From the NCBI GenBank assembly GCA_049115635.1, contig JAGDZT010000002.1, forward strand, positions 366,568 to 430,567: a stretch of DNA of 64,000 bases. The letters run 5' to 3'. Below the pieces are notes generated by a model that worked only from the letters and a program-made list of their open reading frames with translations, searched no databases and was not told where the DNA came from. Below, in pieces: positions 16,567 through 53,429 of this stretch; position 1 is the first letter of the stretch; the number at the start of each line of letters is the position of its first letter. The translations under genes were made by a program, and so were the position numbers. This DNA is from Flavobacteriaceae bacterium. GTDB taxonomy: Bacteria > Bacteroidota > Bacteroidia > Flavobacteriales > Flavobacteriaceae.

Positions 16567-17316
16567 ATGATAGCAGAAATAAAAGCCAACTCAAAAAAAT
16601 ATACAATTGATTTAAAAAAACCGATTGATATTTCTATCGCCTTAGATCCTTCAAAACAAAATGTAAACGCTTGGTATATAGGTCCGCCTAAAATATATCC
16701 AGTAGCTACAGAAGAATGGGTAGGTAGCGTGGCGCAAGGATTCGATGTAAATTTTAATATGATAGAATTCAACCCACACTCACATGTAACACATACAGAA
16801 ACGGCTGGGCATATTACCGAGAAGATACATTCTATTAATCAACATTTAAAACAATACTTTTTTCTAGCAGAAGTAGTAACTATTGCTCCAGAAGCAAAAG
16901 ATGATGATTTCTTTATTTCTAAAAAACAACTTCAATATGCATTAGGGAATAAGAAAAGAGAAGCTATTGTCATTCGTACACTTCCTAATCTAGAAGATAA
17001 AAAGGCGATGCAATATTCTAATACCAATCCACCATATTTACTAGAAGAAGCAGCCATTTATTTACGTGAGAAAGGCATCAAACATTTATTGGTGGATTTA
17101 CCATCTGTAGATAGAGAAAAGGACGGTGGAAATTTATTGTCGCACAATGCTTTTTGGAATACTGCTGGGAAGTTACGATTAGATGCGACGATTACAGAAT
17201 TTATATTTGTGCCTAATAGCGTAGAAGACGGCACCTATTTTTTAAACCTAATGATTGCCCCTTTTGAAAACGATGCGAGTCCTAGTAAGCCAGTCTTGTA
17301 TGAAGTTTTAGAATAA
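16567..17316 (+). CDS. Cyclase family (kynurenine formamidase-like) protein
   Basis: NPHSHVTHTE (variant of HxGTHxD), HLLVDLPSVD, TITE. Confidence 0.85.
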   Translation: MIAEIKANSKKYTIDLKKPIDISIALDPSKQNVNAWYIGPPKIYPVATEEWVGSVAQGFDVNFNMIEFNPHSHVTHTETAGHITEKIHSINQHLKQYFFLAEVVTIAPEAKDDDFFISKKQLQYALGNKKREAIVIRTLPNLEDKKAMQYSNTNPPYLLEEAAIYLREKGIKHLLVDLPSVDREKDGGNLLSHNAFWNTAGKLRLDATITEFIFVPNSVEDGTYFLNLMIAPFENDASPSKPVLYEVLE

Positions 17317-17319
17317 AAA

Positions 17320-18120
17320 TTAGTTTTGATCTAAGCCGTTCCAATCATATAAGCCATACCAATACCAATTTTTCTCACTACAGCTTAGATTTACATTTCC
17401 ATAATTCGTTTTTATACCTTCATCAAAATCATATACTTTGAAGAAATAAGTACTATCTAGTTTTAGATTGTTAATGATTCGTTTAATTGAATCTAGGTCT
17501 TTCTTGGAGATGGATTTATCTACTACTAAAGTAATAGGATGTGTATTCTTATTAATATTTAAAGACATATAATCATTTAATAGAGAGGTAGCATAATCAT
17601 TGTTGGTTTTTAATGTTTTATTACTACTCCCTTTTATTGTTACTGCTCCATTTTGCCAACCGATGTATATTTCAGGGTATTCATAGTCTTTTATTTTTAT
17701 TAACGAAGTAAGTTGATTTACTTTCGGTAGATCTATCTTTAGATTGTACTCTTTTAAATAATGTTTCCAGAAATCGTCAACTTTTAAAAGTAAATGTTCT
17801 AAAGTATCACCTTCCACAATAACATAAATTGAATCTTTAGCAGAGTTGAACCTGTAGTCAAAATAAGAATATTCGTTATAACCTGGAATACCTTTGCTTT
17901 TAGGATAATGAAAGTAAATTTTTGATGAATCTACCGTCCATGTTCCTACAAATTTCTTGCAATAGGACCAAGATACTACTGAGTCTTGATAGAACTGTAT
18001 TTGATTGTGAAATCCAGTAGGTCTATCATCCCAAATACCTATAAAATTTTCTTTAGAGTATTTATTTGAGCAGTTATAAAAACTAAAACAAACAAAGATT
18101 AGGATTATTATCTTTTTCAT
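17320..18120 (-). CDS. Hypothetical lipoprotein
   Basis: Lipobox FYNC; C-terminal LVVDKSI segment loosely ExbD-like. Confidence 0.7.
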   Translation of the reverse strand: MKKIIILIFVCFSFYNCSNKYSKENFIGIWDDRPTGFHNQIQFYQDSVVSWSYCKKFVGTWTVDSSKIYFHYPKSKGIPGYNEYSYFDYRFNSAKDSIYVIVEGDTLEHLLLKVDDFWKHYLKEYNLKIDLPKVNQLTSLIKIKDYEYPEIYIGWQNGAVTIKGSSNKTLKTNNDYATSLLNDYMSLNINKNTHPITLVVDKSISKKDLDSIKRIINNLKLDSTYFFKVYDFDEGIKTNYGNVNLSCSEKNWYWYGLYDWNGLDQN

Positions 18121-18156
18121 AATTGACGCATAGATTTACTCTAAAATTACTTAATT

Positions 18157-18303
18157 TTAAATAAACCTAGCCCCTAATGCTATATATAGCACAATCAACA
18201 TAATCGCTATCGTAACTTGTAAGAACTTTAACGTTATTTTTTTCAATAACTTATTTCCAATATATGCACCAGAGATCGCAGCTAAGGTGACCCAAACAAC
18301 TAA
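18157..18303 (-). pseudogene. 3' remnant of a membrane-protein gene, probably TauE/SafE sulfite-exporter family
   Basis: Start-less frame LVVWVTLAAISGAYIGNKLLKKITLKFLQVTIAIMLIVLYIALGARFI* resembles TauE C-termini (GAYIG.KL pattern); the upstream part is replaced by palindromic DNA. Confidence 0.65.
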
Positions 18304-18535
18304 AACATAATATCATACAAAACCGAGTTTGAAAGCGATACGAGTCCGAGTAAGCTAGTCTTGTATGAAGTGATGGGGTAGTTTCGTTATCGTGTCTCGT
18401 GGAATGACTAGTTGCGCTTGCCTGCCGAAGGCAGGTGTTTCAACACCTAATTTAGCAAATACAAACCGAATAGAAAATCCGCGAGGATTTTCGTAAGTTG
18501 GCTATAATTAGCAATGAATTATACCCATTATTAGG
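18304..18535 (-). repeat. Composite palindromic attC-like/REP element
   Basis: Nested inverted repeats: tcatacaa/ttgtatga (18313-18369), cctgcc/ggcagg (18421-18435), aggtgtt/aacacct (18433-18448), gaaaatcc/ggattttc (18473-18492); GC-richer than flanks. Confidence 0.7.
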
Positions 18536-18550
18536 TTTAGTTATTTGAAT

Positions 18551-19777
18551 TTATTCACCTTTCAATTTTGTTAAGCCCTTTAAAGTAGTTAAATACTTAC
18601 TAAGATTCAATCCATAATCAAGTATTGTATCGTCGCTCATTTCAGATGTTTTAAAACCTAAACCACTAAAATATTTTTTAATTATTAAGATAGATTTTGG
18701 TTTCCATGTTTCAGGATAAAACTCTTTAATATTATTAACTTGTGCATTTATTGCTAATTCCATTTGCACTACAATCTTACTTAAATCTTTGTTGACAAGA
18801 TTGTTTTTTTTGTTTCTCCATTTTTGATGTTCATAGTTTTCTGAACTAGGATAAATTTTATAAATAACTCTGGGATTTAACTCATCATTTTCTTCCTCAA
18901 CATCTTCATCACACATGTAAAAATTTAGATTTAGTTTTGGTATTTCTTTTTTATAACCCTTAATTTCATCTACAAGTAGCCCTGTCATTTTTTCCAAAGT
19001 TTTTAATCGAAGTTTAGCATATGTTTTACCATAATAATCTACTTGTTTATTATTATAATCTATAGGCTCGATGTAAATGTATGTAGGTTCAATAACTTCA
19101 ACAGTGTTTCCAACTTTTCTAGTTCGTTTAATATTAGGATGAAAATATTTTGCAAATTTCATTTTCACATTATTAAATTTATAACAATGCTTGTTAACTG
19201 TAGAGTTACCATTGTATTTTTTTCTGATATTCATTGACCTTTGAGTATACTTCCAACCTGCTTTCTTTTTATTTTCATTAGTTGCTCTTAAACGTTCTAC
19301 TTTGTCAGTTTTATAAGAGGGTATTCCAATTGTTTGGTGAAGTATCTGTCCGTCACAATTGTGGCAGTATGCTTGAGCTATGCCAAATGAAGTATAGATT
19401 TTAATAAATGAGTCAGGAGATGAGTCATTGTATTCAAAGGCATTTTTCGGATCAACATAAAAGCTTGATACACCAGATTTACTACCTCCTTTAGGGTTGT
19501 AAATAACATTACCTCCCCGCTTCATAAAAGCAAATGAAGCTTCATCATTTTTACCAACACCAAAGAAATATTCCTTTTCACCTGGTTTAATTGGATACCA
19601 ACCTTTATAAGTGTCTGATTTATGTATATACTTATTCGAAGGATGATAGCCATAAGCAACATAAACTGTTTCATCTCCAGTATTTTCAAGATATACTTCA
19701 ATTACTTGACTGAATGAATCTACAGGCATTAACATAAAAAAATAAAGTGCTAATAGTATTATATTTAGTTTTTTCAT
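18551..19777 (-). CDS. Secreted hypothetical protein with N-terminal DUF1036-like domain
   Basis: Signal peptide; N.GDETVYVAYGY...GWYPIKPGE resembles DUF1036; remainder unrecognised. Confidence 0.65.
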   Translation of the reverse strand: MKKLNIILLALYFFMLMPVDSFSQVIEVYLENTGDETVYVAYGYHPSNKYIHKSDTYKGWYPIKPGEKEYFFGVGKNDEASFAFMKRGGNVIYNPKGGSKSGVSSFYVDPKNAFEYNDSSPDSFIKIYTSFGIAQAYCHNCDGQILHQTIGIPSYKTDKVERLRATNENKKKAGWKYTQRSMNIRKKYNGNSTVNKHCYKFNNVKMKFAKYFHPNIKRTRKVGNTVEVIEPTYIYIEPIDYNNKQVDYYGKTYAKLRLKTLEKMTGLLVDEIKGYKKEIPKLNLNFYMCDEDVEEENDELNPRVIYKIYPSSENYEHQKWRNKKNNLVNKDLSKIVVQMELAINAQVNNIKEFYPETWKPKSILIIKKYFSGLGFKTSEMSDDTILDYGLNLSKYLTTLKGLTKLKGE

Positions 19778-19846
19778 GATGTTTTATTTTTATTCTTTCT
19801 AGCTGTTTTTAGGAATTATTCAATTAGTCTTTAATCTGCGATATTG

Positions 19847-21172
19847 TTAATACTTCCATTCTTTATACTTATTCCTGAGCTTTTGAGCTATCTTTTCCAA
19901 TTCAATATTTTGACGTCTTACAGAGTAATATGCTTTATAATAAGCAGGTCTTTGGTTAACTATTTTATTTACATAGTAATAATAAAAAAGAGCACTTTCA
20001 TACTTAGATTTAGGTTTTCTATTAGCTTTTGCAGACAGTTGAAAAGATTTTAATATGTTAGATCTAAGCTTTTTGAACTGCCCAGTAAAATGTATATCAT
20101 TTAGTTCATTATTAATTTTACCATCTGATCCATATATTTTTAAGTCTGAATTAGATACCTTAATTAGTAATCTTTTATAAGGTAATGGATTTTTGGTTTT
20201 TGATTTGTAGACTTCTAATAAAGTATAGGGATAAGTATCAATTTCGTTTTTAAATTTTAGGAATCCTTCATCATTCATCGTTCTCAAATATACTTCGCCG
20301 TGATAAGGACTATTTTCAGGATATTTTACTAAAAGTTCAGAATTTTCATACCTTAATCTATCACTGTATTCTTCATTAGAAAATTCATCTTTCCAATTGT
20401 ACTTTTCTTTTAAAAAAATGAATTTTAGTGTATCATCAGTAATATATAAGTCTCTAGAAATTATATGCGGTGTAGCTCTATAATCGATAAAACGTGGCAT
20501 CCATTTCTTTAATTCCTGCGAGTTTCTTTTATTCTTTTCACTAAGCTTAGTTATTAAATCTTCGTATTTTCCACGATCTCCAAACTTGTTATCAGCATAT
20601 TCTTTAAGACTTTTAAGCTCTTTGGTCACATCGCTACTAATATTTTTACTTTTTAGATACTTCTCAAAAGTAATATCTGGGATAGGATTGAAAAAACTAG
20701 TAGAAATATTTATTCCTTCATGTATTTTGTTTTTTTCTGTAGAAATAATTTTAAGGCCATCATTTTTGAAAACATAATTATCGCTTTTATAATTATAAAC
20801 ACAACATAAAGATTTAAAATTAGTAGTCGATTGATAGGAGTCAACAGTTTTCTTTACTCTTGAGTTAGCATATCTTCTGTTTGTTAAGACTCCTGTATCA
20901 TAAATAAATTCTTTGATTTTCTTCTTTTTATAAGTTTCAGTATATTTTATAAATTGAATAAATTTTAAATCTCCTTCAGTCTCTTCATATGTCAAATAAT
21001 ATATACCAATATCTACCTTTCTGTTTTTAGGCTTTGCCCCCTTTTTCTTAGATATTGCTATCATGGTTTTTCCCTTGAATTCAAATACAGATATTTTTTT
21101 TTGAGCATTTAATGCTGCTAATGATAAAAATAATGTAATAAGAGTTAAAAATATTTTCATGGCTTTTTTCAT
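19847..21172 (-). CDS. Secreted Lys/Tyr-rich hypothetical protein
   Basis: Long ORF with signal peptide (ATG 21172 or 21160); no family recognised. Confidence 0.7.
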   Translation of the reverse strand: MKKAMKIFLTLITLFLSLAALNAQKKISVFEFKGKTMIAISKKKGAKPKNRKVDIGIYYLTYEETEGDLKFIQFIKYTETYKKKKIKEFIYDTGVLTNRRYANSRVKKTVDSYQSTTNFKSLCCVYNYKSDNYVFKNDGLKIISTEKNKIHEGINISTSFFNPIPDITFEKYLKSKNISSDVTKELKSLKEYADNKFGDRGKYEDLITKLSEKNKRNSQELKKWMPRFIDYRATPHIISRDLYITDDTLKFIFLKEKYNWKDEFSNEEYSDRLRYENSELLVKYPENSPYHGEVYLRTMNDEGFLKFKNEIDTYPYTLLEVYKSKTKNPLPYKRLLIKVSNSDLKIYGSDGKINNELNDIHFTGQFKKLRSNILKSFQLSAKANRKPKSKYESALFYYYYVNKIVNQRPAYYKAYYSVRRQNIELEKIAQKLRNKYKEWKY

Positions 21173-21184
21173 TTTTGTAATTAT

Positions 21185-21245
21185 TGCCAACTATATTGAT
21201 ATGATGAGTTTCAATTCATGATATCAGACGATAACGAAGTTAGTA
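21185..21245 (-). other. attC-like site
   Basis: Minus strand TACTAAC...tgatat.atga/tcat.atatca...GTTGGCA; 61 bp, just upstream of the next start codon. Confidence 0.5.
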
Positions 21246-21274
21246 GAAAATAAAATAAGAATCAAACGATATAA

Positions 21275-21772
21275 CTAATGCTTTAAATACTTTTTAGGAA
21301 TGCCTGCTTTACCATTCGAACTCATGGTCCAAACCATATTCGCAATCCACCAACGCCCGCCTGAATAAATAAGTTGATAACTATTCACACCCCAAGCTTC
21401 TTCTCCTTCTGAATCTTTACCATAAAAACTCTGAATGACTTGAGCAATTCCGTTGTATTGCTCAACAATTTCACCTTTCCCAGTTTCAAAATAACCGTTG
21501 GAATAATATGTGTCAGCTAGCGTTTCAATAAACTCGTTTAAACTCATGGTTTCATGGAGCTTCTTCCCATTTTCTTCTCCCACAACTGTAAAATGTGCAG
21601 TAGGAAGAAATAAGGTTCTAAAATAGGCTGTATCTATTTGTTGCCCTTTTTTAATAGAAACTACTTTTTGAGTTTCCTCTACTAAGCTCTTTACATCTTG
21701 AAAGACTTTTTTGTTTTGAGCTGTTATATGCAATGACAAACTAATACTAAGTAATAAGATAATTTTTTTCAT
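21275..21772 (-). CDS. NTF2-like secreted hypothetical protein
   Basis: Signal peptide; LFLPTA, GVNSYQL and RWWIANMVW pattern. Confidence 0.7.
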   Translation of the reverse strand: MKKIILLLSISLSLHITAQNKKVFQDVKSLVEETQKVVSIKKGQQIDTAYFRTLFLPTAHFTVVGEENGKKLHETMSLNEFIETLADTYYSNGYFETGKGEIVEQYNGIAQVIQSFYGKDSEGEEAWGVNSYQLIYSGGRWWIANMVWTMSSNGKAGIPKKYLKH

Positions 21773-21869
21773 AATCGTTTGGTTTGAGCTTAAAATTAGA
21801 AAAGATTCTTACCTTGAGGGCAAGAATTTGTTAATTAACAAGATTTTAAAATAGTGTTCACATATTTTT

Positions 21870-32258: not shown

Positions 32259-33050
32259 TTAACGATTTCCTTGACTAGCATTAAACTTGTAGAGTACAAC
32301 TTCAATGTTTTCATCTCGCAACACCTTAAAATTTCTTTTAAATAGTATCATAGAACGCTTTAAAGTATATAAACTCTTTATTTTAGGAGGACTGTTAATG
32401 ATCCATGTAATAATTTTTGAATTTGGAAAATTCTCTTTTAGAAAAGTATAATCTTTAATGTGAGAAGAGATAAAATCTATACTACCAGAAGAAGTCAAAT
32501 CATTTATAAATTCAGATTGAATGATTAAATCTTCTTTGCTGAAACTGGATATATTAATTGGTAAATAATAAGATGTTTTGAAGCCCTTTTTTGAAAATAG
32601 ATCTAATAAAACAGGTTCAGTAGATTCAACAATAATGTTTGTAGGATTAATACTTAATGTTTTCACAAGGGTATCTAATTTGTTTGCAGCTTGCTGATGA
32701 TTACTTGTATTTAAATTCTTAAAATCGAGCCAAATACCAAAGTCTTGATATTCTTTTTTTGAGCTTAAAAAGTCAAATAACGTTAAGTTAATAGATTCCG
32801 CAGGAGGATGATTAACATCAAAGTTATTCTCTAAGGTATTATACACTATGTCAAGCTCTACTCCAGAAAAAACTGTACGAGCCTCTTCATATTTTTCTAT
32901 ACTATTAACCCTATGTGCCCATATTTTAGATGAAAACCAAAATTTAAAAATTTGATTTTGAAAAGCTAGAGTCAAATAGAATAGTAGTAAAAAAAAGACT
33001 ACTACAAATAGTTTGATCTTATTTTTTTTTATGATTGAAAAAAACGTCAT
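32259..33050 (-). CDS. Membrane-anchored GDPD/PLC-like phosphodiesterase-fold protein
   Basis: WAHRVN, GVELD, DVNH resemble the GDPD HR/ExD/H pattern; N-terminal TM. Confidence 0.55.
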   Translation of the reverse strand: MTFFSIIKKNKIKLFVVVFFLLLFYLTLAFQNQIFKFWFSSKIWAHRVNSIEKYEEARTVFSGVELDIVYNTLENNFDVNHPPAESINLTLFDFLSSKKEYQDFGIWLDFKNLNTSNHQQAANKLDTLVKTLSINPTNIIVESTEPVLLDLFSKKGFKTSYYLPINISSFSKEDLIIQSEFINDLTSSGSIDFISSHIKDYTFLKENFPNSKIITWIINSPPKIKSLYTLKRSMILFKRNFKVLRDENIEVVLYKFNASQGNR

Positions 33051-34602
33051 AGTCTATATGATTTAAAATAAATCTATTTTTTGGGATGAAATTTTTATTG
33101 ACAACACTTTTAGTAGCATCAAATTCTTTAAAAGTAATGCTAGAAAGATCGCTTAAGGTATATAATAGGTTTTCGGTTGAATATTTACGATTTGTATCAA
33201 AAATAAATTTATGATTATCAAGTTTGAATTTTTCAGAAGACCAAAGGATAAATGGGATATCATACATTGGTTTAGACCCTTTGGTTTCTGTATGGCAAGC
33301 CATGTTCATTGTCTCATAAACATCTTCACCATGATCAGAAAAATAAAGAGCATAAGATTTCGAACGAGTTAGTTTTACTTCTTCAATAATTTTAGAAACT
33401 ATAAAATCATTATATAGTATAGCATTATCATAAGTATTAATTGTTTCGTAAGCTTTTTCATGCATAAACTTGGTTGTAGGGTTTTTATCAAATTTTTGAA
33501 AAGAAACAGGATACCTTTTGTTATAAGCACCGTGAGTTCCCATCAGATGAATAACTATAAACTTTTTACGTGCTTTTTGTTTTAATATATTTTTTAAAGG
33601 ACTTAAGATTTTTTCATCTAAAGATATATCTGAAGTGTTAACGAAAATTTGCTCATCACAATTGTTTGATATAATGGTTGTTAAAGTTTCAACAATACCT
33701 AATGGTTTTTGATTAGATAACCAATATGTTTTAAAACCAGCTTTATTGAATAATTGAATTAGTGTTCCATCATATTTTTTATTTGGACTCTCATGAGAAG
33801 CTAATGTCAACACTTTTTCTAAGGAAGGAATTGTATGTGTATGTGGTGAAATAATATCATTGTATATGGTTAATTCTTCTTTAAGACTATCTAGCTTGGG
33901 ATTGTTTTTTCTGTCATAACCATATAGTTGCATATGAGTTCGCGTGGTCGATTCCCCTATAATCAAAACATAAACCTCCTCATCTGTACCATCAGTATGC
34001 TTTACTTCAGAAAAATTTCCACCAAATTTATCACAAGTAATTTCATTAAATTTTTCCTTATCATATTGATATTTCTTAACTGCTCTATATATAGCATGTG
34101 GAAACGTACTCTCTCGTATTTTATAATTTGATAGTAAAATCAAAACGACTAATACATACAAAAACGTATACCTTAAGCTTTTTCTACTTTTTACATTTTT
34201 TATCATTAAAAAAATACTTGTAGAAGCAACTATCACTAATAAGGTTAAAATTAATGTGACGTTAAAGTCAAAATACATTGACAAAAACTCAAATGTCTCG
34301 CTAGAGTTTGAGTCAAAAATTATAAATATGGTAGATGACTTTATATGATCATTAAATAGATAAAAATGTGTTATTTGAATAAACATTATAATGTTAAATA
34401 AAATAACACCAGTAATCTCTAAGAAGGAATTTATTTTTTTGTGTCTGAATAGACTACAGCATAAAATAATTGTAAAAGACAAAAGGATGTCACCAAAAAG
34501 TATGAATACATCTAACGCACTCTTATAAATAATAATTGATAGTAGAATTGGAAACCAAAACCCTATTCGTACTAATGCTTTTAGAAAAATTTTATTTTTC
34601 AA
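33019..34602 (-). CDS. Phosphoethanolamine transferase (EptA/CptA family)
   Basis: About 5 N-terminal TMs; LIIGES, T..SL, HLMGTH, SDHGE; TTG start. Confidence 0.9.
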   Translation of the reverse strand: MKNKIFLKALVRIGFWFPILLSIIIYKSALDVFILFGDILLSFTIILCCSLFRHKKINSFLEITGVILFNIIMFIQITHFYLFNDHIKSSTIFIIFDSNSSETFEFLSMYFDFNVTLILTLLVIVASTSIFLMIKNVKSRKSLRYTFLYVLVVLILLSNYKIRESTFPHAIYRAVKKYQYDKEKFNEITCDKFGGNFSEVKHTDGTDEEVYVLIIGESTTRTHMQLYGYDRKNNPKLDSLKEELTIYNDIISPHTHTIPSLEKVLTLASHESPNKKYDGTLIQLFNKAGFKTYWLSNQKPLGIVETLTTIISNNCDEQIFVNTSDISLDEKILSPLKNILKQKARKKFIVIHLMGTHGAYNKRYPVSFQKFDKNPTTKFMHEKAYETINTYDNAILYNDFIVSKIIEEVKLTRSKSYALYFSDHGEDVYETMNMACHTETKGSKPMYDIPFILWSSEKFKLDNHKFIFDTNRKYSTENLLYTLSDLSSITFKEFDATKSVVNKNFIPKNRFILNHIDYDVFFNHKKK

Positions 34603-34803
34603 TGGTATTGGTTTAGGATATCATTTGTTAACTTTCTCGGTGTCAAAAAAGATTTTTACATATATATTTTGCCTTCAAATTACGGTTAAAATGTTTGAAT
34701 ATGGCTAGTTGTATGTTTGTATTAAGACATACGCAACTAAATTAATAAAAGAAAATGAACCAAAGTAGCGTTTCACTAGTAATTAATAATAGAATTATAG
34801 GCG

Positions 34804-35424
34804 TCAGTTTTTTCTTAAAACAATGAGCCTATCGGTTAGAATATCTATTTCAAGTTTGTTTTTATTCGCAATATATTCGATTGTTTCTTTTCTATATATA
34901 AAAACATGAGTAGGATCTTTTCGATAAAACCACGTATCGAAATCCATTTGGTCATTATATAATAATGTCATTATAAGTAAACTTCCATTTGTGTTTAATA
35001 TAGATGTTAGCCTATCAATTTCCATTTTTGGATGATAAAAATGTTCAAATACTTCACAACTAACAATATAGTCGTACATCGAATTCAACGTTTCTTTATT
35101 TGGAGCAAAAAACGGATCGTATTGAACAATACTATAGTCTTGTTTTATAAGCATACTTGAAATAACAGGACCAGTACCGCTTCCAAAATCTAACCCTGTA
35201 TGCTTTGGTGAAAATTTTTCTAGTACATAATTTGTAATAGGTTGTGTAAAATCTTGATATCGAATGTCATTTACATCATTATTATGAATCTCATACCGTG
35301 CTTTTTCTTCGTCGGGTTTTAAGTAATATTTTTCATCTTTTACAATTGCTTTACATACATCGCAATCATAATAATATGCGTCTTTTTTAGCTGTAAGAGT
35401 CGAATCGCAAAGTGTACAAATCAT
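34804..35424 (-). CDS. Class I SAM-dependent methyltransferase with N-terminal zinc ribbon
   Basis: CTLC..CDVC, LDFGSGTG, YDPFF, EVFEH, YRKDPTH. Confidence 0.9.
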   Translation of the reverse strand: MICTLCDSTLTAKKDAYYYDCDVCKAIVKDEKYYLKPDEEKARYEIHNNDVNDIRYQDFTQPITNYVLEKFSPKHTGLDFGSGTGPVISSMLIKQDYSIVQYDPFFAPNKETLNSMYDYIVSCEVFEHFYHPKMEIDRLTSILNTNGSLLIMTLLYNDQMDFDTWFYRKDPTHVFIYRKETIEYIANKNKLEIDILTDRLIVLRKN

Positions 35425-35508
35425 TTTGTTTTAATTACTTGTTATTAAAGGCAAACGCTTAAAATTAAAGATAAGCATTTGCCCATAGATACCATTACTT
35501 GAAATATA

Positions 35509-36336
35509 TTATTGTCTTTTATCTATTGATTCATCTACAATTGCATTAGCTGGTTTTATCATTCTTTTTTCATCAAATTTGTTGTTGATGCTATAATTAT
35601 AGATTGCATGATCTCCATAAAGCTTTTTTAAATCTAAACTTTTAGTAACCATCAACATTGGGAATTTTAACCCATTTATATCTCCTGTATAACTATTTAT
35701 TCTAAGCATTGGTCCAAAAACTTCTTGATTTTTTGGCACTCGTAATACATCTAATAAAGGTCCATAGCCAACAGTGTACTCATACCCATTTAGAATATAG
35801 GTTTGTGAATCTATATAAAGAATAAAAGTATCTTTTGCAGATTTTCCTAGTGTAGGAGATTCAGTAAAACTCATTTTTATTTTGTAGACTTCATTTTTAA
35901 AAGCGGGATGCTTTAATTTAGTAACATCGCCCAGTATTACTGTATTGTCTTGTGTTAACCAAGGTAAATTTACATAGTAATAATATACTGAGTGTTGGTG
36001 GTTTGGTGGATTCCCAGACCGCCAGTTGGTAGTCCATACTTTATTCCCATCATAAGTTATTTTTGAGCCAAATAAAGGCCAATCCTGATATGATCTTCTT
36101 TTTTGCATATCGATTGTTTGATTCGCTACCCAAAACCTTACAAAACCTAAAGATTCACTATGCATAGTATTTGTAAAGCTTAGTGTTTTAAGGCTCTTCC
36201 ATTTTTCATAACCTCCATGTGCTTTAATCATTTTTTGTATGACTTCTTTTGTTTCTTTCGATGCATACTTTTTTTGGCTAAAGCTATTTCCGATAGCTAA
36301 TAAACCAACCATTACTGTTAAAATTAGTGTTCTCAT
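35509..36336 (-). CDS. DUF6503-like secreted protein
   Basis: Signal peptide from ATG 36336; KMIKAHGG..W, YVNLPW, LYID. Confidence 0.7.
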   Translation of the reverse strand: MRTLILTVMVGLLAIGNSFSQKKYASKETKEVIQKMIKAHGGYEKWKSLKTLSFTNTMHSESLGFVRFWVANQTIDMQKRRSYQDWPLFGSKITYDGNKVWTTNWRSGNPPNHQHSVYYYYVNLPWLTQDNTVILGDVTKLKHPAFKNEVYKIKMSFTESPTLGKSAKDTFILYIDSQTYILNGYEYTVGYGPLLDVLRVPKNQEVFGPMLRINSYTGDINGLKFPMLMVTKSLDLKKLYGDHAIYNYSINNKFDEKRMIKPANAIVDESIDKRQ

Positions 36337-36360
36337 TTTTTTATTTTTATGATTTAAGGT

Positions 36361-36368
36361 CAAAATTA
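36361..36368 (-). promoter_or_regulatory. -7 box for the DUF6503-like gene
   Basis: TAATTTTG on the minus strand, 24 nt before ATG 36336; no TTTG at the -33 position. Confidence 0.55.
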
Positions 36369-36475
36369 TAGAGCAAAGAGGTTTATTAAAAGTCTTTTGT
36401 TGTGAGCAACATTTAAAGATGTTAATGACAATTTCAAATGAGGTTCACAAAACATTATTTCGCTACTTTTATCGT

Positions 36476-37558
36476 ATGAAGATTTTAAGACGACATAAAA
36501 CAGGTATTCCAAAAAAGTATATCTATTTATCAGCGCTTCTTTTTAGTATAGTAGTTATTATACAAATTCTCAGTACTGAACAAAATAGGAGTTCAGAAGT
36601 CTTATTGCGCCATATTGTTTTATTTGTTTCTGTTTATTTTATGTGGGCTTTACTTCTAGATTACATGACTGCTCTTATAAAGCCATTTAATAAAGAGAAG
36701 CCTGTTTTTTATCAAGTTACAGAACGATTGATTTCCTCCTTTATACTTGTCTTGTTTAATTTAGTAGTAACCAATATTATATATTATATTATTCTCATAA
36801 GTTTTTGGAACTTTACAATTACTGAGGCCTATTTAGATTTTCAACCTTACATCATTAAATCAATTATTATAAGGTTTTTGGATGTTATTATTATAGGTAT
36901 AATACTTAAGTTTATTGATGCCTATCAAATGTTACAAGAGCAAAAGTTAAAGATGGTAACCTTAGAGAATAAATTACATATTTCTCAGCTAGAAACCTTA
37001 AGAAATCAATTAGATCCCCACTTTTTATTTAATACACTTCATACTTTGAATACCTTGATAGGATATGATGATAAAAAAGCTAGATCAATGATCATTAAAG
37101 TTACAAATCTGTTACGTAAGATTTTGGATAAAAGAGAAAAGCAACTCATTACTTTTGATGAGGAATTGGAATACTTTACAAACTATTTAGAAATAGAAGA
37201 AGAACGTTTTCATGACAGGCTTGAGGTTGCTTTAGAAATCGCAATTGAGACTAGAGAAATTATGGTTCCCACTCTAATGTTACAGCCTTTAATTGAAAAT
37301 GCTTTTAAACATGGGATAGGACAAATAGAAGGGAAGGGAATCATTACCTTGACGGCTTTTATAAGAGAAGGTGTCTTTATTATAAGCTTATCTAATACAA
37401 TACCAGACAATGAATTATCTATTGTATACAATTCAACAAAAGTTGGTTTAGAAAACTTAGAAAGTAGATTACAACAAGTATATGGAGAAAAGTACCTTTT
37501 TTCTACAAAAAAAGAGAAAGACAGTTTTATTGCAACCATAAAAATTAATCATAAATAG
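36476..37558 (+). CDS. LytS-type sensor histidine kinase
   Basis: TM helices; NQLDPHFLFNTL, EIEEERF, LQPLIENAFKHG, VGLENL; ATG 36476 preferred over 36419. Confidence 0.92.
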   Translation: MKILRRHKTGIPKKYIYLSALLFSIVVIIQILSTEQNRSSEVLLRHIVLFVSVYFMWALLLDYMTALIKPFNKEKPVFYQVTERLISSFILVLFNLVVTNIIYYIILISFWNFTITEAYLDFQPYIIKSIIIRFLDVIIIGIILKFIDAYQMLQEQKLKMVTLENKLHISQLETLRNQLDPHFLFNTLHTLNTLIGYDDKKARSMIIKVTNLLRKILDKREKQLITFDEELEYFTNYLEIEEERFHDRLEVALEIAIETREIMVPTLMLQPLIENAFKHGIGQIEGKGIITLTAFIREGVFIISLSNTIPDNELSIVYNSTKVGLENLESRLQQVYGEKYLFSTKKEKDSFIATIKINHK

Positions 37559-48935: not shown

Positions 48936-49006
48936 AAGAATCTATTTTGGGATTGGTTATAAAGCTATAACGTGCTTGTAGATAATTTGTTACTTAATAA
49001 AAAGTT

Positions 49007-49048
49007 AAAAACACAATCTCTGGTGTGTATTAGAGATTGTGTTTTTTT
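49007..49048 (-). terminator. Intrinsic terminator
   Basis: aaaaacacaatctct / agagattgtgttttt 15-bp inverted repeat. Confidence 0.85.
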
Positions 49049-49124
49049 AAAACTGAGAAAAAACTAAATTATAATTATTTTAATAACGACTATAAGATGT
49101 ATTTTATTATGCTTTAATTCTATT

Positions 49125-50465
49125 TTATAGTTCTAAACGTTTCTTAATAATTTCCTTCAATTCTTTAATAGATTTATTCCTAGCAATTATTTTCCCAGAT
49201 GCGTCTATTAATAATGTGCTAGGGTATTCGGTGATTCTCAATTTTTCAATCATAGAGTTTTTACCTCTATTTTTACTATTAACAAATAATTGATCCCAGT
49301 TCATTTCATTTTCTTTGGTAAATTTCTTTACTTTTTCAAGATTTCTATCATAAGAGATGCTTATCATTTTAAAGCGTTCGTTTTTGCCAATTTCACGATG
49401 TAAGGTTTTTAGATCTGGTAAAGCTTCTATACAAGGCTGGCACCAAGTGCCCCAGAAATCTAATAAAATTAACTTGTCTTTATAGCTATCAATATTAAGT
49501 AACGTACTATCTAACCTTCTTCCTTTTAAAGATGGAATATATAATCCTTCATTAATTCCTATAGGCTTATTGTTTACCCCTTTATAAGATAAAAACAAGG
49601 AATCTCCAAAAGTTGATATTTTTCTAAACTCAAAATCTTTTCCATTAAAATTGATGATGTCTTTGGTTTTATACGGAATATAATTTTTAGATTCTAAAGG
49701 AAATTTTTCTTCATTTTTAGCCATATATAGCTTTGTCTTTTTATCAGAATACTCTACACCAGTAAATCCATTAGCAATGGCTAAGTTGTATTTTATTCCA
49801 TCTACTTCAATGTTCCCTTTTTTAAATTCTGGAATACTAATGAATAGCGAATATTTTTTTTCTAGCTTGTTTTTACTCATAGAAAAACTCATTCCCATTG
49901 AACCTTTATATGGACTAGGTTTTAATAAGACTTTTCTAGATTCTATTTTTTGACCATGATAGTATTCGAAACTTGCTTCAACCGTGGGTAATTTTTCTAA
50001 GATCTCTTTTTGATTTTCTACGGGTAAAGGAAAATCATAAGTCAATATTTTTTCATTCCTAAAGTCTTCATCATTATCAGTGTCAACGATAATTATTCTT
50101 TGACCTTCATTGATGGTGCCAACAAGAATTAAAATTTCAGTATCTACATAACGAGTTGATAGTTTTGTAGTATCTATTTTATATCGTTTGGCTATTTTGG
50201 CAAAGCTTTTATTTGCTTTCTTATATTTGTAAAACAACGATTGAAATCGCTGTAAAGAGTAAGACCTAACTACATACTCTTTGATAGTTGTTGGAACTCC
50301 TTTATGTTCTATAGAATCTCTACTAGGCATAATTATAGCTTTTCCTGGTAAAAAATTACTATATCCTGTTTCTGATGTCAAAGCTACTTGTATATCTTTT
50401 TGCTCTTCAGAACAAGAAGATATTACAAATAAGATTAGTAGTATAAAAAGAATATTACGTATCAT
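49125..50465 (-). CDS. TlpA-like thiol-disulfide oxidoreductase lipoprotein with long N-terminal extension
   Basis: Lipobox ISSC; C-terminal LDFWGTWCQPC, YPST.LID. Confidence 0.88.
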   Translation of the reverse strand: MIRNILFILLILFVISSCSEEQKDIQVALTSETGYSNFLPGKAIIMPSRDSIEHKGVPTTIKEYVVRSYSLQRFQSLFYKYKKANKSFAKIAKRYKIDTTKLSTRYVDTEILILVGTINEGQRIIIVDTDNDEDFRNEKILTYDFPLPVENQKEILEKLPTVEASFEYYHGQKIESRKVLLKPSPYKGSMGMSFSMSKNKLEKKYSLFISIPEFKKGNIEVDGIKYNLAIANGFTGVEYSDKKTKLYMAKNEEKFPLESKNYIPYKTKDIINFNGKDFEFRKISTFGDSLFLSYKGVNNKPIGINEGLYIPSLKGRRLDSTLLNIDSYKDKLILLDFWGTWCQPCIEALPDLKTLHREIGKNERFKMISISYDRNLEKVKKFTKENEMNWDQLFVNSKNRGKNSMIEKLRITEYPSTLLIDASGKIIARNKSIKELKEIIKKRLEL

Positions 50466-50560
50466 TTTATTAGCAGTGTTTTATATAAATATATGGATGA
50501 AATATGAAGAGGTTAATGGGTGTAGTATCCCAATAAACCTTGGGTTTATTAGGATGTAAA

Positions 50561-50587
50561 AAAAGCCATTTATAAGAAATGGCTTTT
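50561..50587 (-). terminator. Intrinsic terminator after M56 gene
   Basis: aaaagccattt-ataag-aaatggctttt. Confidence 0.8.
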
Positions 50588-50601
50588 ATAATACATACAT
50601 T

Positions 50602-52311
50602 TTAAAGAGCGTTAGAATTTGAGAATGTATTTAAAACTTCGAGATTTTTTTTGATTTCTCTTTTCTTTTTATAATTCTTCGAACTGTTTAATTTCTCTAT
50701 AGTGTTATTATTTGCGTAAGCATTAATTTTTAATAAAGCTTTTTTAGTAGCAGCATTCCCGTATTTTCTGTTTTTTGTGCTGATATCTACTTTTATAAAC
50801 TTATTTTTATCTTTCTGAACTTCGATGTCTTTTACGGTACTCGATTTTTTATAAAAATATTTTTTAGCTTTTTTTGCAGATATTTTCTTGCCATTTAAAT
50901 AGAAAGCAGCTTTATCTTTTTTGAGTTGCTCATAGTCTAGCTTCAAAAATACTTTTGAGCGGTCTTCTTTCTCCTGAATAACTTGTATTCTATCAATCAC
51001 TACTGGAGATTCAATTACTTCTTCAACCTCTTCTAGTTCTTCAACTTCCTCAACTTCTTCTACTTGTGGTACTTCAATAATCTCAATTACTTCTTTTTTT
51101 AAGGGAGGACGAGGTGAGCTTTTTACGAGTTTTACTTTTGCATTGGAATTTTTTCTTCTGATTACTTCAATTTTAGTAGGCTTGGGTGGAACTTTTTTTT
51201 CACGAACTACTTTTGCTTTAGGAGATTTTTTGCCAATCACTACTGGAGGAGGTAAAACATCATTAATATTCTTGACTGCTTTTTTCTGTTTGGCAGACAT
51301 TAAACTATGTAAGTGCCTTAGTCTTTTTAGATCTTTGAATTTGAATGATTGCTTTTTTTCAGCAATTTTTAATAAAGCCTTGTATTCTTTCATCTGAGCG
51401 TCTGTAGCTTTTTTAAGCTCTACAACTTCAATAAGTTTTGTTTTTTTCTCTTTAGTTTGCGCTTCGACACGAGTTGCAAATAAAAATACTAAACCAGCAA
51501 TAAATGGTATTATAGCTAATTTCTTTATTAAGATATTAGTCTTTGAGTTAGGTGTTTTCATCATTAATAATCTTTTTTTTGTGAGTGAATAATTCAAATT
51601 ACTGGCCAAGTAATATTCGTTTTTCCAAGCGGCTTTATTTAAGAGTAAAGATTGATACTTGGAGATATTGTTATGTGATGCAATGACCTTGTCATCAGCT
51701 AAAAATTCATGGTTTAATTGTATGGCTTTCTTTATCATAAAAAATAAAGGATTGAACCAAAAGATAATTTGCAAAAGTTCTATTATTAAAACATCGATAG
51801 TATGTTTTTGCGTAACATGAGCCAATTCATGTGTAAATAGTTCTTCTTCTATTTCTTGGGATTGATATTCGTCTTTATTAATAAAAATATAGTTCCAAAA
51901 TGTATGCGGAAGTATTGCATCTTCTACAGGGATAAAGTTTGCATGCTCGCTTTTTATAACCTCATTGACTTTAATTTTATGAATTATGCTATATAAGTTT
52001 TTTATAAAACGAATTAAAAAAGTTAAAGAAACTAGCATGTAAATAGCAATCAAACCATTTTGAATAGTGAAATAGCGTTCAAATAAACTTAGATTTTCAA
52101 TAGTAATTGATCCTATGTATTCTTTTGAAGAACTTACTGCCTCTAATGCTTCAACGTAAATAATAACACTAGGAGCAACAAAAGAAAAAAGAACGCTTCC
52201 TAATAAATAGAAACGATTGAATCTGTGCATCTTCTCTCTTTCTAATACCAAATGATAAAAAGCGAGTAAAAATGCCAAGCATAAACCAGATTTTAGTAAG
52301 TAGAATGTCAT
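50602..52311 (-). CDS. BlaR1/M56 family peptidase
   Basis: HELAH..Q.HTID, FWFNP, HEFLAD, KKRL.MM; 4-bp overlap with BlaI. Confidence 0.92.
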   Translation of the reverse strand: MTFYLLKSGLCLAFLLAFYHLVLEREKMHRFNRFYLLGSVLFSFVAPSVIIYVEALEAVSSSKEYIGSITIENLSLFERYFTIQNGLIAIYMLVSLTFLIRFIKNLYSIIHKIKVNEVIKSEHANFIPVEDAILPHTFWNYIFINKDEYQSQEIEEELFTHELAHVTQKHTIDVLIIELLQIIFWFNPLFFMIKKAIQLNHEFLADDKVIASHNNISKYQSLLLNKAAWKNEYYLASNLNYSLTKKRLLMMKTPNSKTNILIKKLAIIPFIAGLVFLFATRVEAQTKEKKTKLIEVVELKKATDAQMKEYKALLKIAEKKQSFKFKDLKRLRHLHSLMSAKQKKAVKNINDVLPPPVVIGKKSPKAKVVREKKVPPKPTKIEVIRRKNSNAKVKLVKSSPRPPLKKEVIEIIEVPQVEEVEEVEELEEVEEVIESPVVIDRIQVIQEKEDRSKVFLKLDYEQLKKDKAAFYLNGKKISAKKAKKYFYKKSSTVKDIEVQKDKNKFIKVDISTKNRKYGNAATKKALLKINAYANNNTIEKLNSSKNYKKKREIKKNLEVLNTFSNSNAL

Positions 52312-52682
52312 TTTTTATTCTCTTTGATTTGTTTATCAATAATTTTACGTAGTTCTTCTAATTCAGCATTGGTAAGATCTGTTTCTTTAGTGAAAAAAGA
52401 GGCAAATTGTGAGGCTGAATCATTAAAGAAATTTTTAATTAACCCATTAACATGTCTAGAGAAATAATCTGACTTTTTAACTAAAGGATAGTATTCTCTA
52501 GATTTACCAAGGGTCTTATAATTAATAAAACCTTTCTGTGTCATTCTTTTTAATAAGGTAGCAACAGTCGTGGTTGCTGGTTTTGGCTCTGAAAAATCAT
52601 CCAATAAATCTTTCATAAAAGCTGTATTTCGCTTCCATAAATATTGCATCAGTTGTTCTTCAGATTTAGATAATTGCACCAT
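52308..52682 (-). CDS. BlaI/MecI/CopY family repressor
   Basis: LSKSEEQLMQYLW, TTVATLLKR, REYYPL, FASFF; ATG 52682 preferred. Confidence 0.95.
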   Translation of the reverse strand: MVQLSKSEEQLMQYLWKRNTAFMKDLLDDFSEPKPATTTVATLLKRMTQKGFINYKTLGKSREYYPLVKKSDYFSRHVNGLIKNFFNDSASQFASFFTKETDLTNAELEELRKIIDKQIKENKK

Positions 52683-52695
52683 CTTAATATTTTTT

Positions 52696-52746
52696 ACTCT
52701 ACAAATATAGAACAAAAAACTTTAACTCTACAAGTGTAGAGTTAAA
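52696..52746. promoter_or_regulatory. Two BlaI/CopY-type operators
   Basis: tttaactcTACA-ag-TGTAgagttaaa (52721-52746) and ctcTACA-aa-TATAga (about 52697-52711); TACAnnTGTA is the family motif. Confidence 0.85.
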
Positions 52747-52802
52747 AAATTGTTAATCCCATTTTATTATCTTTGATGTTATCAATAATGATACCCAGAT
52801 TT

Positions 52803-53429
52803 ATGAAAAAAATAGCATTTCTTTTTTTAGTTATAGTAGTAAGCGCTTGTAGTAAAAAAGTATTTAATGAAAAATGGACCACAAAAAAGGCTCCAGAAAC
52901 TTTTAAAGCTCGTTTTGAAACGACACAAGGTAATTTTGACATTGAGGCAAAAAGGGCATGGTCGCCTCAAGGAGTAGATCGTTTATACCAGTTAATTAAG
53001 CGTGGGTTTTATACAGATATGGCTATTTATAGAGTAGTACCTAATTTTGTAGCTCAATTTGGAATTCATAAAGATTCACTGGTAAATAAGGGTTGGAACA
53101 CTATTAAAATTGATGACGAGCCTGTACTCCAAAAAAATGATTCTATGACCATTGCTTTTGCTAGAGGAGGTGTTAAGACAAGGGGGACTCAAATTTTTAT
53201 CAACCTAAAAGAAAATCATCGTTTAGATACATTGGATTATGCAGGCGTAAAAGGATTTCCTGTAATAGCAAAAGTTACTAATGGAATGGAAAACGTATTG
53301 AAATTTTATAATAAATACGGAGATAAATTAGGAAGGAAACAAGGAGAAATTCATAAATCTGGATATTCTTTCTTAAAGAAGAATTACCCTGAAATAGATT
53401 ATATTAAGAAAGCATACTTTATAAAATAA
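52803..53429 (+). CDS. Cyclophilin-type peptidyl-prolyl isomerase, lipoprotein
   Basis: YRVVPNFVAQFG, TQIFINL, LD...F; lipobox VSAC; ATG 52803 preferred. Confidence 0.92.
   Translation: MKKIAFLFLVIVVSACSKKVFNEKWTTKKAPETFKARFETTQGNFDIEAKRAWSPQGVDRLYQLIKRGFYTDMAIYRVVPNFVAQFGIHKDSLVNKGWNTIKIDDEPVLQKNDSMTIAFARGGVKTRGTQIFINLKENHRLDTLDYAGVKGFPVIAKVTNGMENVLKFYNKYGDKLGRKQGEIHKSGYSFLKKNYPEIDYIKKAYFIK

Follow-up and report, generated by a model that had tools for sequence, protein, structure and literature searches.

The DNA analysed here, hereafter the window, is a 64-kb stretch of the Flavobacteriaceae contig JAGDZT010000002.1 (C2; window C2:366568-430567, with positions given without a contig name counted from its first nucleotide). 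On its minus strand, two orphan genes (ORFans) encoding proteins of 441 aa (19847-21172; 437 aa from the next ATG) and 408 aa (18551-19777) lie between the two parts of a split short palindrome. The left part (21191-21245, minus strand) precedes the genes, and the right part (18382-18390, minus strand) follows a decayed copy of a long element resembling an integron attachment site (attC), which occupies 18391-18540 on the minus strand. Upstream of the left part, and outside the inserted DNA, lies a resident gene for a 165-aa exported protein (21275-21772, minus strand), placed 5' of the left arm. Past the right part are a 54-nt relic of a cyclase gene end, a TauE/SafE-type gene fragment, a lipoprotein-like gene and the present cyclase gene. 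We consider it highly probable that 18391-21190 is a decayed cassette unit, inserted at the short palindrome by an integron-like capture system with an Xer-like recombinase.

The original prediction for this locus, made from the nucleotide letters, had described an integrase-less, integron-like array of orphan secreted-protein genes with a palindromic spacer at each boundary. The genes themselves were described correctly. Both are co-oriented and AT-rich (26.3% GC for the 441-aa gene and 28.6% for the 408-aa gene, with 32.1% for the window and 34.3% for flanking core genes), both products have signal-peptide-like N-termini, and neither has a Pfam family or a close relative among 5.8 billion proteins, where the search with the 441-aa protein returned only itself. 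The 441-aa protein has no paralogue within its own genome, and the 408-aa protein found no match across 200 genera of Flavobacteriaceae. All-against-all HMMER comparison related the 408-aa protein to 20 distant representatives (26-45% identity), with only the N-terminal domain of about 160 aa, of unknown function, in common; in these representatives the domain is fused to TPR, ankyrin or Fib_succ_major, and no Pfam family covers it in any of the 20. The absence of an integrase also held, since the tyrosine recombinase profile PF00589 had no match in the 64 kb. No tRNA or tmRNA was found at the locus by ARAGORN, and Rfam searches of the window at gathering thresholds and of 17900-21500 at E<=1 returned only a tRNA-Leu elsewhere and a chance microRNA match.

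The three spacers fared differently: two are sites, of two different kinds, the middle one is not, and no repeat common to all three was found. The terminal spacer had been drawn at 18304-18535. It does contain a structured multi-copy element (fold z-score -4.4, far beyond chance), confined to 18391-18540, and the remainder consists of the cyclase relic and the TauE/SafE fragment. A covariance model built from the long-element alignment matched the window copy at 84 bits (E=4.5e-18, 18383-18540), and this copy is 83-91% identical to the others. Iterated nhmmer recovered 22 copies of the element, about 140 nt long, in the genome, all of them directly 3' of the stop codon of a co-oriented open reading frame (ORF), in agreement with the expectation that the spacer would be multi-copy and would mark boundaries of gene gain and loss. 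One-directional rows of the element occupy C2:281-11923, C1:416-432 kb and C6:0.8-2.4 kb, with further rows on C7 and C12. Between species the element is 85-93% identical, compared with approximately 70% for the core genes of those species.

Aligned copies open with a 5' box, C-N7-AAC, and close with a 3' box, GTT-N7-A, the AAC core being present in 148 of 149 sites and the GTT core in 144 of 149. The layout is much like that of attC: the R box leads into an asymmetric internal loop and then a 16-bp stem, and the distal part is variable. The consensus fold of a 62-copy alignment reached -27.1 kcal/mol on the bottom (antisense) strand versus -2.1 on the top strand, or -6.1 and 0, respectively, with DNA parameters. 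Over 31 pairs, the bottom strand showed 264 G.T cells versus 19 A.C cells among those that are not Watson-Crick, three G.T positions were almost invariant, and several stem pairs covaried, one of them occurring as GC in 29 copies, AU in 24 and CG in 8. No regular extrahelical bases were seen in the folded element. As judged from these alignments, the antisense strand is the folding strand, as in integrons, and the recombination substrate would then be single-stranded. The prediction that these sites would be integron-like yet unlike classical attC was thereby borne out, with the AAC and GTT cores kept and other features differing.

The element is consistently associated with one recombinase family. 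PF00589 matched C2 at 13, 195-197 and 210 kb, and the first of these is a gene for a 387-aa tyrosine recombinase (C2:13159-14322); the window begins 352 kb further along this contig. The C2 row of long elements begins directly after this gene and is co-oriented with it, forming an array of six elements (C2:281-13131). The best PDB match of the recombinase, by sequence, is XerA; among NCBIfam models it scored just under the XerA cut-off (213.8 bits, cut-off 220) and also under that of the integron-integrase model TIGR02249 (208.9 bits in two stretches, cut-off 265). Aligned with VchIntIA (2A3V), its residues 100-269 and 290-363 correspond to 12-181 and 245-318, leaving 20 residues where VchIntIA has 63, and the IntI-specific additional domain is missing. 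The protein carries an extra N-terminal part of approximately 90 aa, and its gene reads toward the array. Homologues with 54-78% identity occur in Polaribacter, Tenacibaculum, Winogradskyella, Algibacter, Bizionia, Lutibacter and many more genera. At 80 Flavobacteriaceae recombinase loci, 134 long elements were found in 322 kb of downstream DNA, all co-oriented and none antisense, and three in 686 kb of upstream DNA. An uncharacterised tyrosine recombinase had been suggested as possibly acting on the locus in trans, and this gene, which stands at the head of an intact array and has an attI-like site of its own, is a candidate for that role. The nine array proteins compared with Pfam carry TIR_2, PD40 or esterase domains, or belong to no family. 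At C2:10322-11770, a cassette of this array codes for a TIR_2 protein of 482 aa (Pfam E=1.4e-8), a candidate for a cassette-borne defence gene.

The arrays also contain a signature of where recombination takes place. When the N7 preceding AAC was compared with the N7 following GTT of the preceding site, 57 of 111 pairs were complementary at all seven positions and 25 at six, with a mean of 5.51/7; compared with the 3' box of the same element, the mean was 2.70/7, close to the 2.61/7 of random pairs. Because the 5' box complements the N7 of the preceding site and relates to its own 3' box at the random level, this pattern indicates that the crossover would fall at G|TT, as in integrons, and that the bases after GTT would belong to the next cassette. 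The same box rule is obeyed by an attI-like site, ATATAAC(C/A)(A/C)|GTT-N7, situated 18-69 nt past the approximate 3' end of the recombinase gene in about 30 of 43 loci. In the genome under study, this site reads CCATATAACCA|GTTGTGCATAA, lies 33 nt after the recombinase stop codon and matches CTATGCACAAC of the first element, to whose box the CCATATAACCA|GTT site is complementary.

The left spacer of the window belongs to a second kind of site. It consists of (C)TAAC, an R-like arm TTCGTTATC, a spacer GTC, a stem TGATATCATGA/TCATCATATCA, a spacer ATATA and a final G, with the crossover point between 21191 and 21190. Its missing end, AT-AACGAAA, stands at 18382-18390 and complements TTCGTT-AT(C) at 21238-21230. 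The two parts form an exact 11-nt inverted repeat, TTCGTTATCGT (21238-21228) and ACGATAACGAA (18393-18383), a length reached in 3 of 5000 shuffles (p about 6e-4). The covariance model of the long element gave this spacer 12.8 bits (E about 1 over 128 kb), in an alignment that makes it a minimal site, with ATC as its core and the central 80 positions absent, and its R arm, 3- and 5-nt spacers and stem repeat the layout of the long element. An extent from TAAC to GTT had been predicted for the spacer, and the short-site family proved to have exactly those ends; the role assigned to it, as the attC of the upstream gene, did not stand, as the spacer is instead a landing site.

The short-site family comprises 11 members from the same genome and from metagenome loci, which share a conserved block extending from TAAC to (G)TT. 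When metagenomes were scanned with an 18-nt pattern, 46 stretches came up, mostly chance 18-mers; 10 of them, from seven distinct sites, are true members. Some of these sites are empty (L138, L142, L130/L109). They lie between convergent genes and read TAAC-TTCGTTATC-GTC-TGATAT-loop-ATATCA-TTAAA-GAT-AACGAA-ACC, the 3' end GAT-AACGAA-ACC being that of L138 and L142, and their own boxes complement each other. Two are occupied. In L151, together with L118, the site is cut after G and followed by TT-N7, one signal-peptide ORF, a long element (nhmmer E=4.5e-23) and G|AT-AACGAAA, with perfect agreement to the box rule (GTAGTGT and ACACTAC-AAC). L143 is organised alike: its long element matches at E=3.9e-28, the right junction reads G|AT-AATGAAA, and the boxes agree at 7/7 (AGCATCA and TGATGCT-AAC). 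Both are single cassettes between housekeeping genes at unrelated metagenomic loci. No short site was found in 1.2 Mb of recombinase loci.

The window shares the architecture of the occupied sites, in which the left part of the short site is followed by G|TT-N7, ORFs, the long element and G|AT-AACGAAA. Its junctions read ...ATATCA-ATATA-G|TT-GGCAATA at 21191/21190 and ...CAC-G|AT-AACGAAA at 18391/18390, enclosing a unit (18391-21190, minus strand) that starts with TT-GGCAATA, carries the two ORFan genes and ends with the G of the long element. Joining the flanks gives ...ATATCA-ATATA-GAT-AACGAAAC, a site like the empty ones, suggesting that the unit was inserted into the short palindrome.

Relatives support a lineage-specific origin. 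In at least five species of the same genus, the flanking cyclase and alpha/beta-hydrolase genes are adjacent, co-oriented and only a few nucleotides apart, and in other species different genes follow the cyclase; because relatives lack the insert, 17317-21869 is specific to this lineage, as had been expected of genes that are neither conserved nor syntenic. The resident 165-aa gene has a paralogue at C3:110127 (35% identity) and a relative elsewhere in another genome (G009).

The window copy of the long element is degraded, in accordance with the decay that had been proposed. Its 5' box, C-TAAACCT-AAT (18540-18530), has AAT for AAC, GAT replaces GTT, and its last G is at 18391. A central hairpin, GAAAATCC/GGATTTTC, persists at 18492-18473, while in the model alignment several stem pairs are broken and the R box and L stem contain non-standard pairs. 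The outer stem is missing when this copy is folded alone. A small nested hairpin, CCTGCCTTCGGCAGG (18421-18435, minus strand), has been inserted within it; 8 of the 22 copies in the genome contain such a hairpin, other copies lack it at the same position, and four of its six strict genomic matches fall inside elements.

Between the two ORFan genes, spacer 2 (19778-19846, minus strand) carries no recognisable site. It had been proposed as one (about 19850-19798), and this was not upheld: the spacer is single-copy, is less structured than its shuffles (fold z +1.05) and has no model match at E<=10. Possibly it is what remains of a middle attC-like site, and two genes of approximately 1.3 kb each would most simply be read as two cassettes that have lost the site between them.

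The cyclase side bears scars of a different kind. The relic of a cyclase 3' end (FESDTSPSKLVLYEVMG, then the stop; 18328-18381, plus strand) is identical at 40 of 44 positions to the present cyclase end at 17263-17306, in direct orientation, and its stop codon, TAG at 18379-18381, lies three nucleotides past the second junction. The segment 17307-18327 is bracketed by this 44-nt direct repeat. It includes the TauE/SafE-type fragment (18157-18309, minus strand), a pseudogene remnant of the C-terminal 50 aa (PF01925, E=0.0038, profile positions 195-236 of 237) with no full-length paralogue in the genome, and the gene for the 266-aa lipoprotein-like protein (17320-18120, minus strand), which has no Pfam family and is not beside the cyclase gene in relatives. 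A later replacement probably brought this gene, the TauE fragment and the cyclase 3' end now in place.

Among other explanations, the one that survives best, though we regard it as unlikely, is that the locus is the truncated remnant of a longer array of cassettes (a CALIN-like array) which has lost its recombinase and other cassettes without ever having been inserted at a landing site. The decayed sites, the failure of the box rule within the unit and the adjoining rearrangement scars would all suit such a history. It is at odds with the exactness with which the halves of the short palindrome bracket the unit, with the same split architecture around single cassettes at the two metagenomic loci, with the existence of intact short sites elsewhere and with the lack of any recombinase remnant in the window. 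The locus appears to be one insertion, of one or two cassettes, and in this respect the original prediction of a decaying cassette array is corrected.

A still less probable explanation is that the long element is an intergenic repeat of the REP or terminator type and that the island arose through ordinary homologous or illegitimate recombination rather than site-specific insertion. The element does always follow gene ends and has a strong GC-rich hairpin, and the relic cyclase end and the TauE fragment are a recombination scar of the kind that this would leave. Left unexplained, however, are box complementarity specific to each neighbour, strict polarity downstream of one recombinase family, an attI-like site under the same box rule and the excess of G.T cells conserved on the antisense strand. 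Dispersed repeats of the REP or MITE class occur in either orientation, with target-site duplications and without neighbour-specific ends; the long element does not fit this description, given its complete co-orientation with the upstream ORF and the recombinase and its end boxes specific to the neighbouring cassette. That the short palindrome is a mere bidirectional terminator, adjacent to cassettes by chance, is hardly credible: empty copies do lie between convergent genes, and the left spacer alone folds no better than shuffles (z -0.6 and -1.4), but the cut falls at the same G|AT in all three independent occupied copies, each has the cassette start TT-N7 and then the AT-AACGAAA remainder after the long element, and the layout mirrors that of the long element.

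Several observations weigh against the insertion of a cassette unit, or limit how far it can be taken. The unit in the window fails the box rule, GGCAATA agreeing with TAAACCT at only 3/7, so that its 5' boundary is drawn by analogy with L151 and L143; loss of a middle site would explain the mismatch. Only two copies of the short site occur in the genome, and the second (C3:609262-609315), whose conservation has TAAC and GTT as its exact limits, lacks a recognisable right junction, with neither AT-AACGAA nor an attC-like site. Empty and occupied landing sites are known from different loci. The relatives are other species, at approximately 70% identity, and provide no orthologous empty site for the exact locus; at that divergence none was recovered at the nucleotide level. 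The recombinase is linked to the long elements by association, and it would be the enzyme that acts on them. Finally, the evidence is comparative throughout, and the locus is a fossil with no indication of current activity, so that it documents history rather than activity.

In summary, we propose the following mechanistic model. An Xer-like recombinase (C2:13159-14322), together with its attI-like site, would serve co-oriented cassettes that are each closed by an attC-like element, with recombination crossing at G|TT. A cassette unit would have been inserted at G|AT of the short palindrome, a minimal attC-like site with an ATC/GAT core, which presumably lay between the convergent cyclase and 165-aa genes and would have been split by the insertion into 21191-21245 and 18382-18390. 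Decay would have followed, changing AAC to AAT, breaking stems, admitting a hairpin and probably removing the middle site. A later replacement would then have brought in the new cyclase 3' end, the lipoprotein gene and the TauE fragment, leaving 54 nt of the old cyclase end as a relic. The observation on which the original prediction was built is thus partly confirmed, and its integron-like interpretation is supported with corrections.

A broader proposal, which we put forward tentatively and at somewhat less than even odds, is that marine Flavobacteriaceae possess a second, non-IntI kind of integron, with an Xer-like recombinase and folded bottom-strand sites, whose cassettes are also seeded into scattered intergenic ATC/GAT mini-palindromes. 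Single ORFan cassettes would then be products of active genome-wide capture, and the system would represent, with the rAID-1 elements discussed below, either an independent invention or a sister lineage of classical integrons. If this is true, cassette-based gene capture extends beyond the IntI family, and the source of many exported ORFan proteins of flavobacteria would be explained. Integrons are the textbook gene-capture device; here the same cassette grammar appears with a different recombinase, in a system that is widespread among abundant marine bacteria and that some plasmids carry too, and the short landing site offers a concrete target for cassette insertion outside arrays. We found no description of the flavobacterial system in the literature.

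We made additional observations on these elements and their surroundings. The long element occurs on a few Bacteroidota plasmids, from Tenacibaculum (four places in one record; the Tenacibaculum finnmarkense plasmid CP116298.1, L152, carries it), Flagellimonas and Persicobacter (five places), and the phage collection gave no match for it; transfer of cassettes between species could take place on plasmids. At C1:432293-433780, a gene for a 495-aa large serine recombinase (Resolvase and Recombinase domains) ends inside a long element and heads a row of four, with two tyrosine recombinase genes nearby (C1:435-446 kb), and a mobile element that inserted into a cassette array, or that carries one, may account for this locus. 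A repeated module that starts at G|TT with GAAGCACATTCAGCAAAGCTGAAC was found at C2:9114, 7923 and 263, at C1:431139 and at C4:481114, and approximately 70 nt further on it reads GTCCTTC-AAC-AGACCTGCTAAACC. It looks like a second attC-like subtype, to go by its letters, with the 3' end ...GTTTAGCAGGTCT|GTT, an end that L061, L080 and C17 also show; ahead of the C4:481114 copy stands an attI-like CCATATAACTA|GTT, with no recombinase match nearby.

In 8 of the 22 long-element copies, GC-rich hairpins of 15-20 nt (CCTGCC-N-GGCAGG) are inserted at positions that coincide or lie close together, twice in one of them, and on this distribution appear to behave like a tiny mobile palindrome that targets long elements. 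A start complementary to the 5' box of the long element (GTT/ATT-AGGTTTA) was sought at the locus, and the only exact match, TTAGGTTTA at 17243-17251, lies inside the present cyclase gene, on the wrong side. There, TAAACCTAAT at 17243-17252 (plus strand) equals the 5' box of the long element (TAAACCT-AAT) on the opposite strand, 1.3 kb away; this may be chance (expected about 0.02-0.06) or the trace of a rearrangement. After the GTT of the second short site, a 422-aa ORF and a gene resembling C5 DNA methyltransferases follow (C3:609262-611690), which may constitute a restriction-modification cassette. Elsewhere in the window, the composition profile showed two more low-GC stretches (33000-37000 and 49000-53000, 25-30% GC), in which the covariance model found no attC-like elements.

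Among known systems, classical integrons have the same grammar. Surveys that rely on IntI and attC models have recorded hardly any integrons in Bacteroidetes, where IntegronFinder 2.0 reported only In0 elements and one Salinibacter integron (bioRxiv 10.1101/2022.02.28.482270). The flavobacterial system shares with classical integrons co-oriented, promoterless-looking cassettes closed by an imperfect palindrome with AAC...GTT, a G|TT crossover that leaves the R' remainder with the next cassette, predicted bottom-strand folding, an attI-type site beside the recombinase gene and isolated cassettes at G-W-T secondary sites. Classical integrons also place cassettes at 5'-GWT-3' sites of the genome, where single attC sites are left behind (bioRxiv 10.1101/2022.09.11.507474), and the landing-site insertion proposed here would parallel such attC x attC or attG events. 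Among integrons, the closest likeness is to sedentary chromosomal ones, with their long homogeneous attC sites, and to isolated cassettes (SALIN) at genomic GWT positions. By analogy, the window, with two sites, a long one and a short one, and without any PF00589 match, resembles a SALIN or CALIN, although its sites are not classical attC.

The differences are equally clear. Unlike integron integrases, the recombinase is Xer-like, lacks the IntI-specific domain, has the extra N-terminus of about 90 aa and reads toward the array, and for want of the IntI-specific feature we do not file the system as an integron. Its attI-like site, unlike that of most integrons, lies downstream of a co-oriented recombinase gene; the R box is 10 bp; the strand bias stems from conserved G.T positions rather than regular extrahelical bases; and the target outside arrays is a structured mini-site. 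The Xer-dependent pdif modules of Acinetobacter plasmids are likewise gene modules bounded by short Xer-type sites, their sites being 28-bp, double-stranded and dif-like, in alternating orientation and served by the housekeeping XerC/XerD. The pdif modules are not known to include a hairpin element or a recombinase of their own, nor to form arrays that run in a single direction.

The closest described system, from the same phylum, is rAID-1 of Bacteroidales gut bacteria, which combines a XerD-like recombinase with low-GC genes, all co-directional, and with repeats in the intergenic sequences (bioRxiv 10.1101/471110). Its definition demands a 5' recombinase more than 44% identical to BF9343_RS08045 of B. 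fragilis as well as immunity-gene content (Ross et al. 2019, bioRxiv 10.1101/471110), and the passages considered here give intergenic motifs with no mention of a crossover point, strand bias or landing sites. We set the two systems side by side by description; the Bacteroides and Parabacteroides plasmid homologues of the flavobacterial recombinase are 32% identical to it and may not be rAID recombinases. Both have at least two co-directional low-GC genes downstream with repetitive intergenic sequences (26-29% GC for the window's cassette genes versus 34% for core genes), and the flavobacterial system differs in its marine Flavobacteriaceae hosts and, on the Pfam results for its array proteins, in its cargo of ORFans, a TIR-domain protein, an esterase and similar genes.

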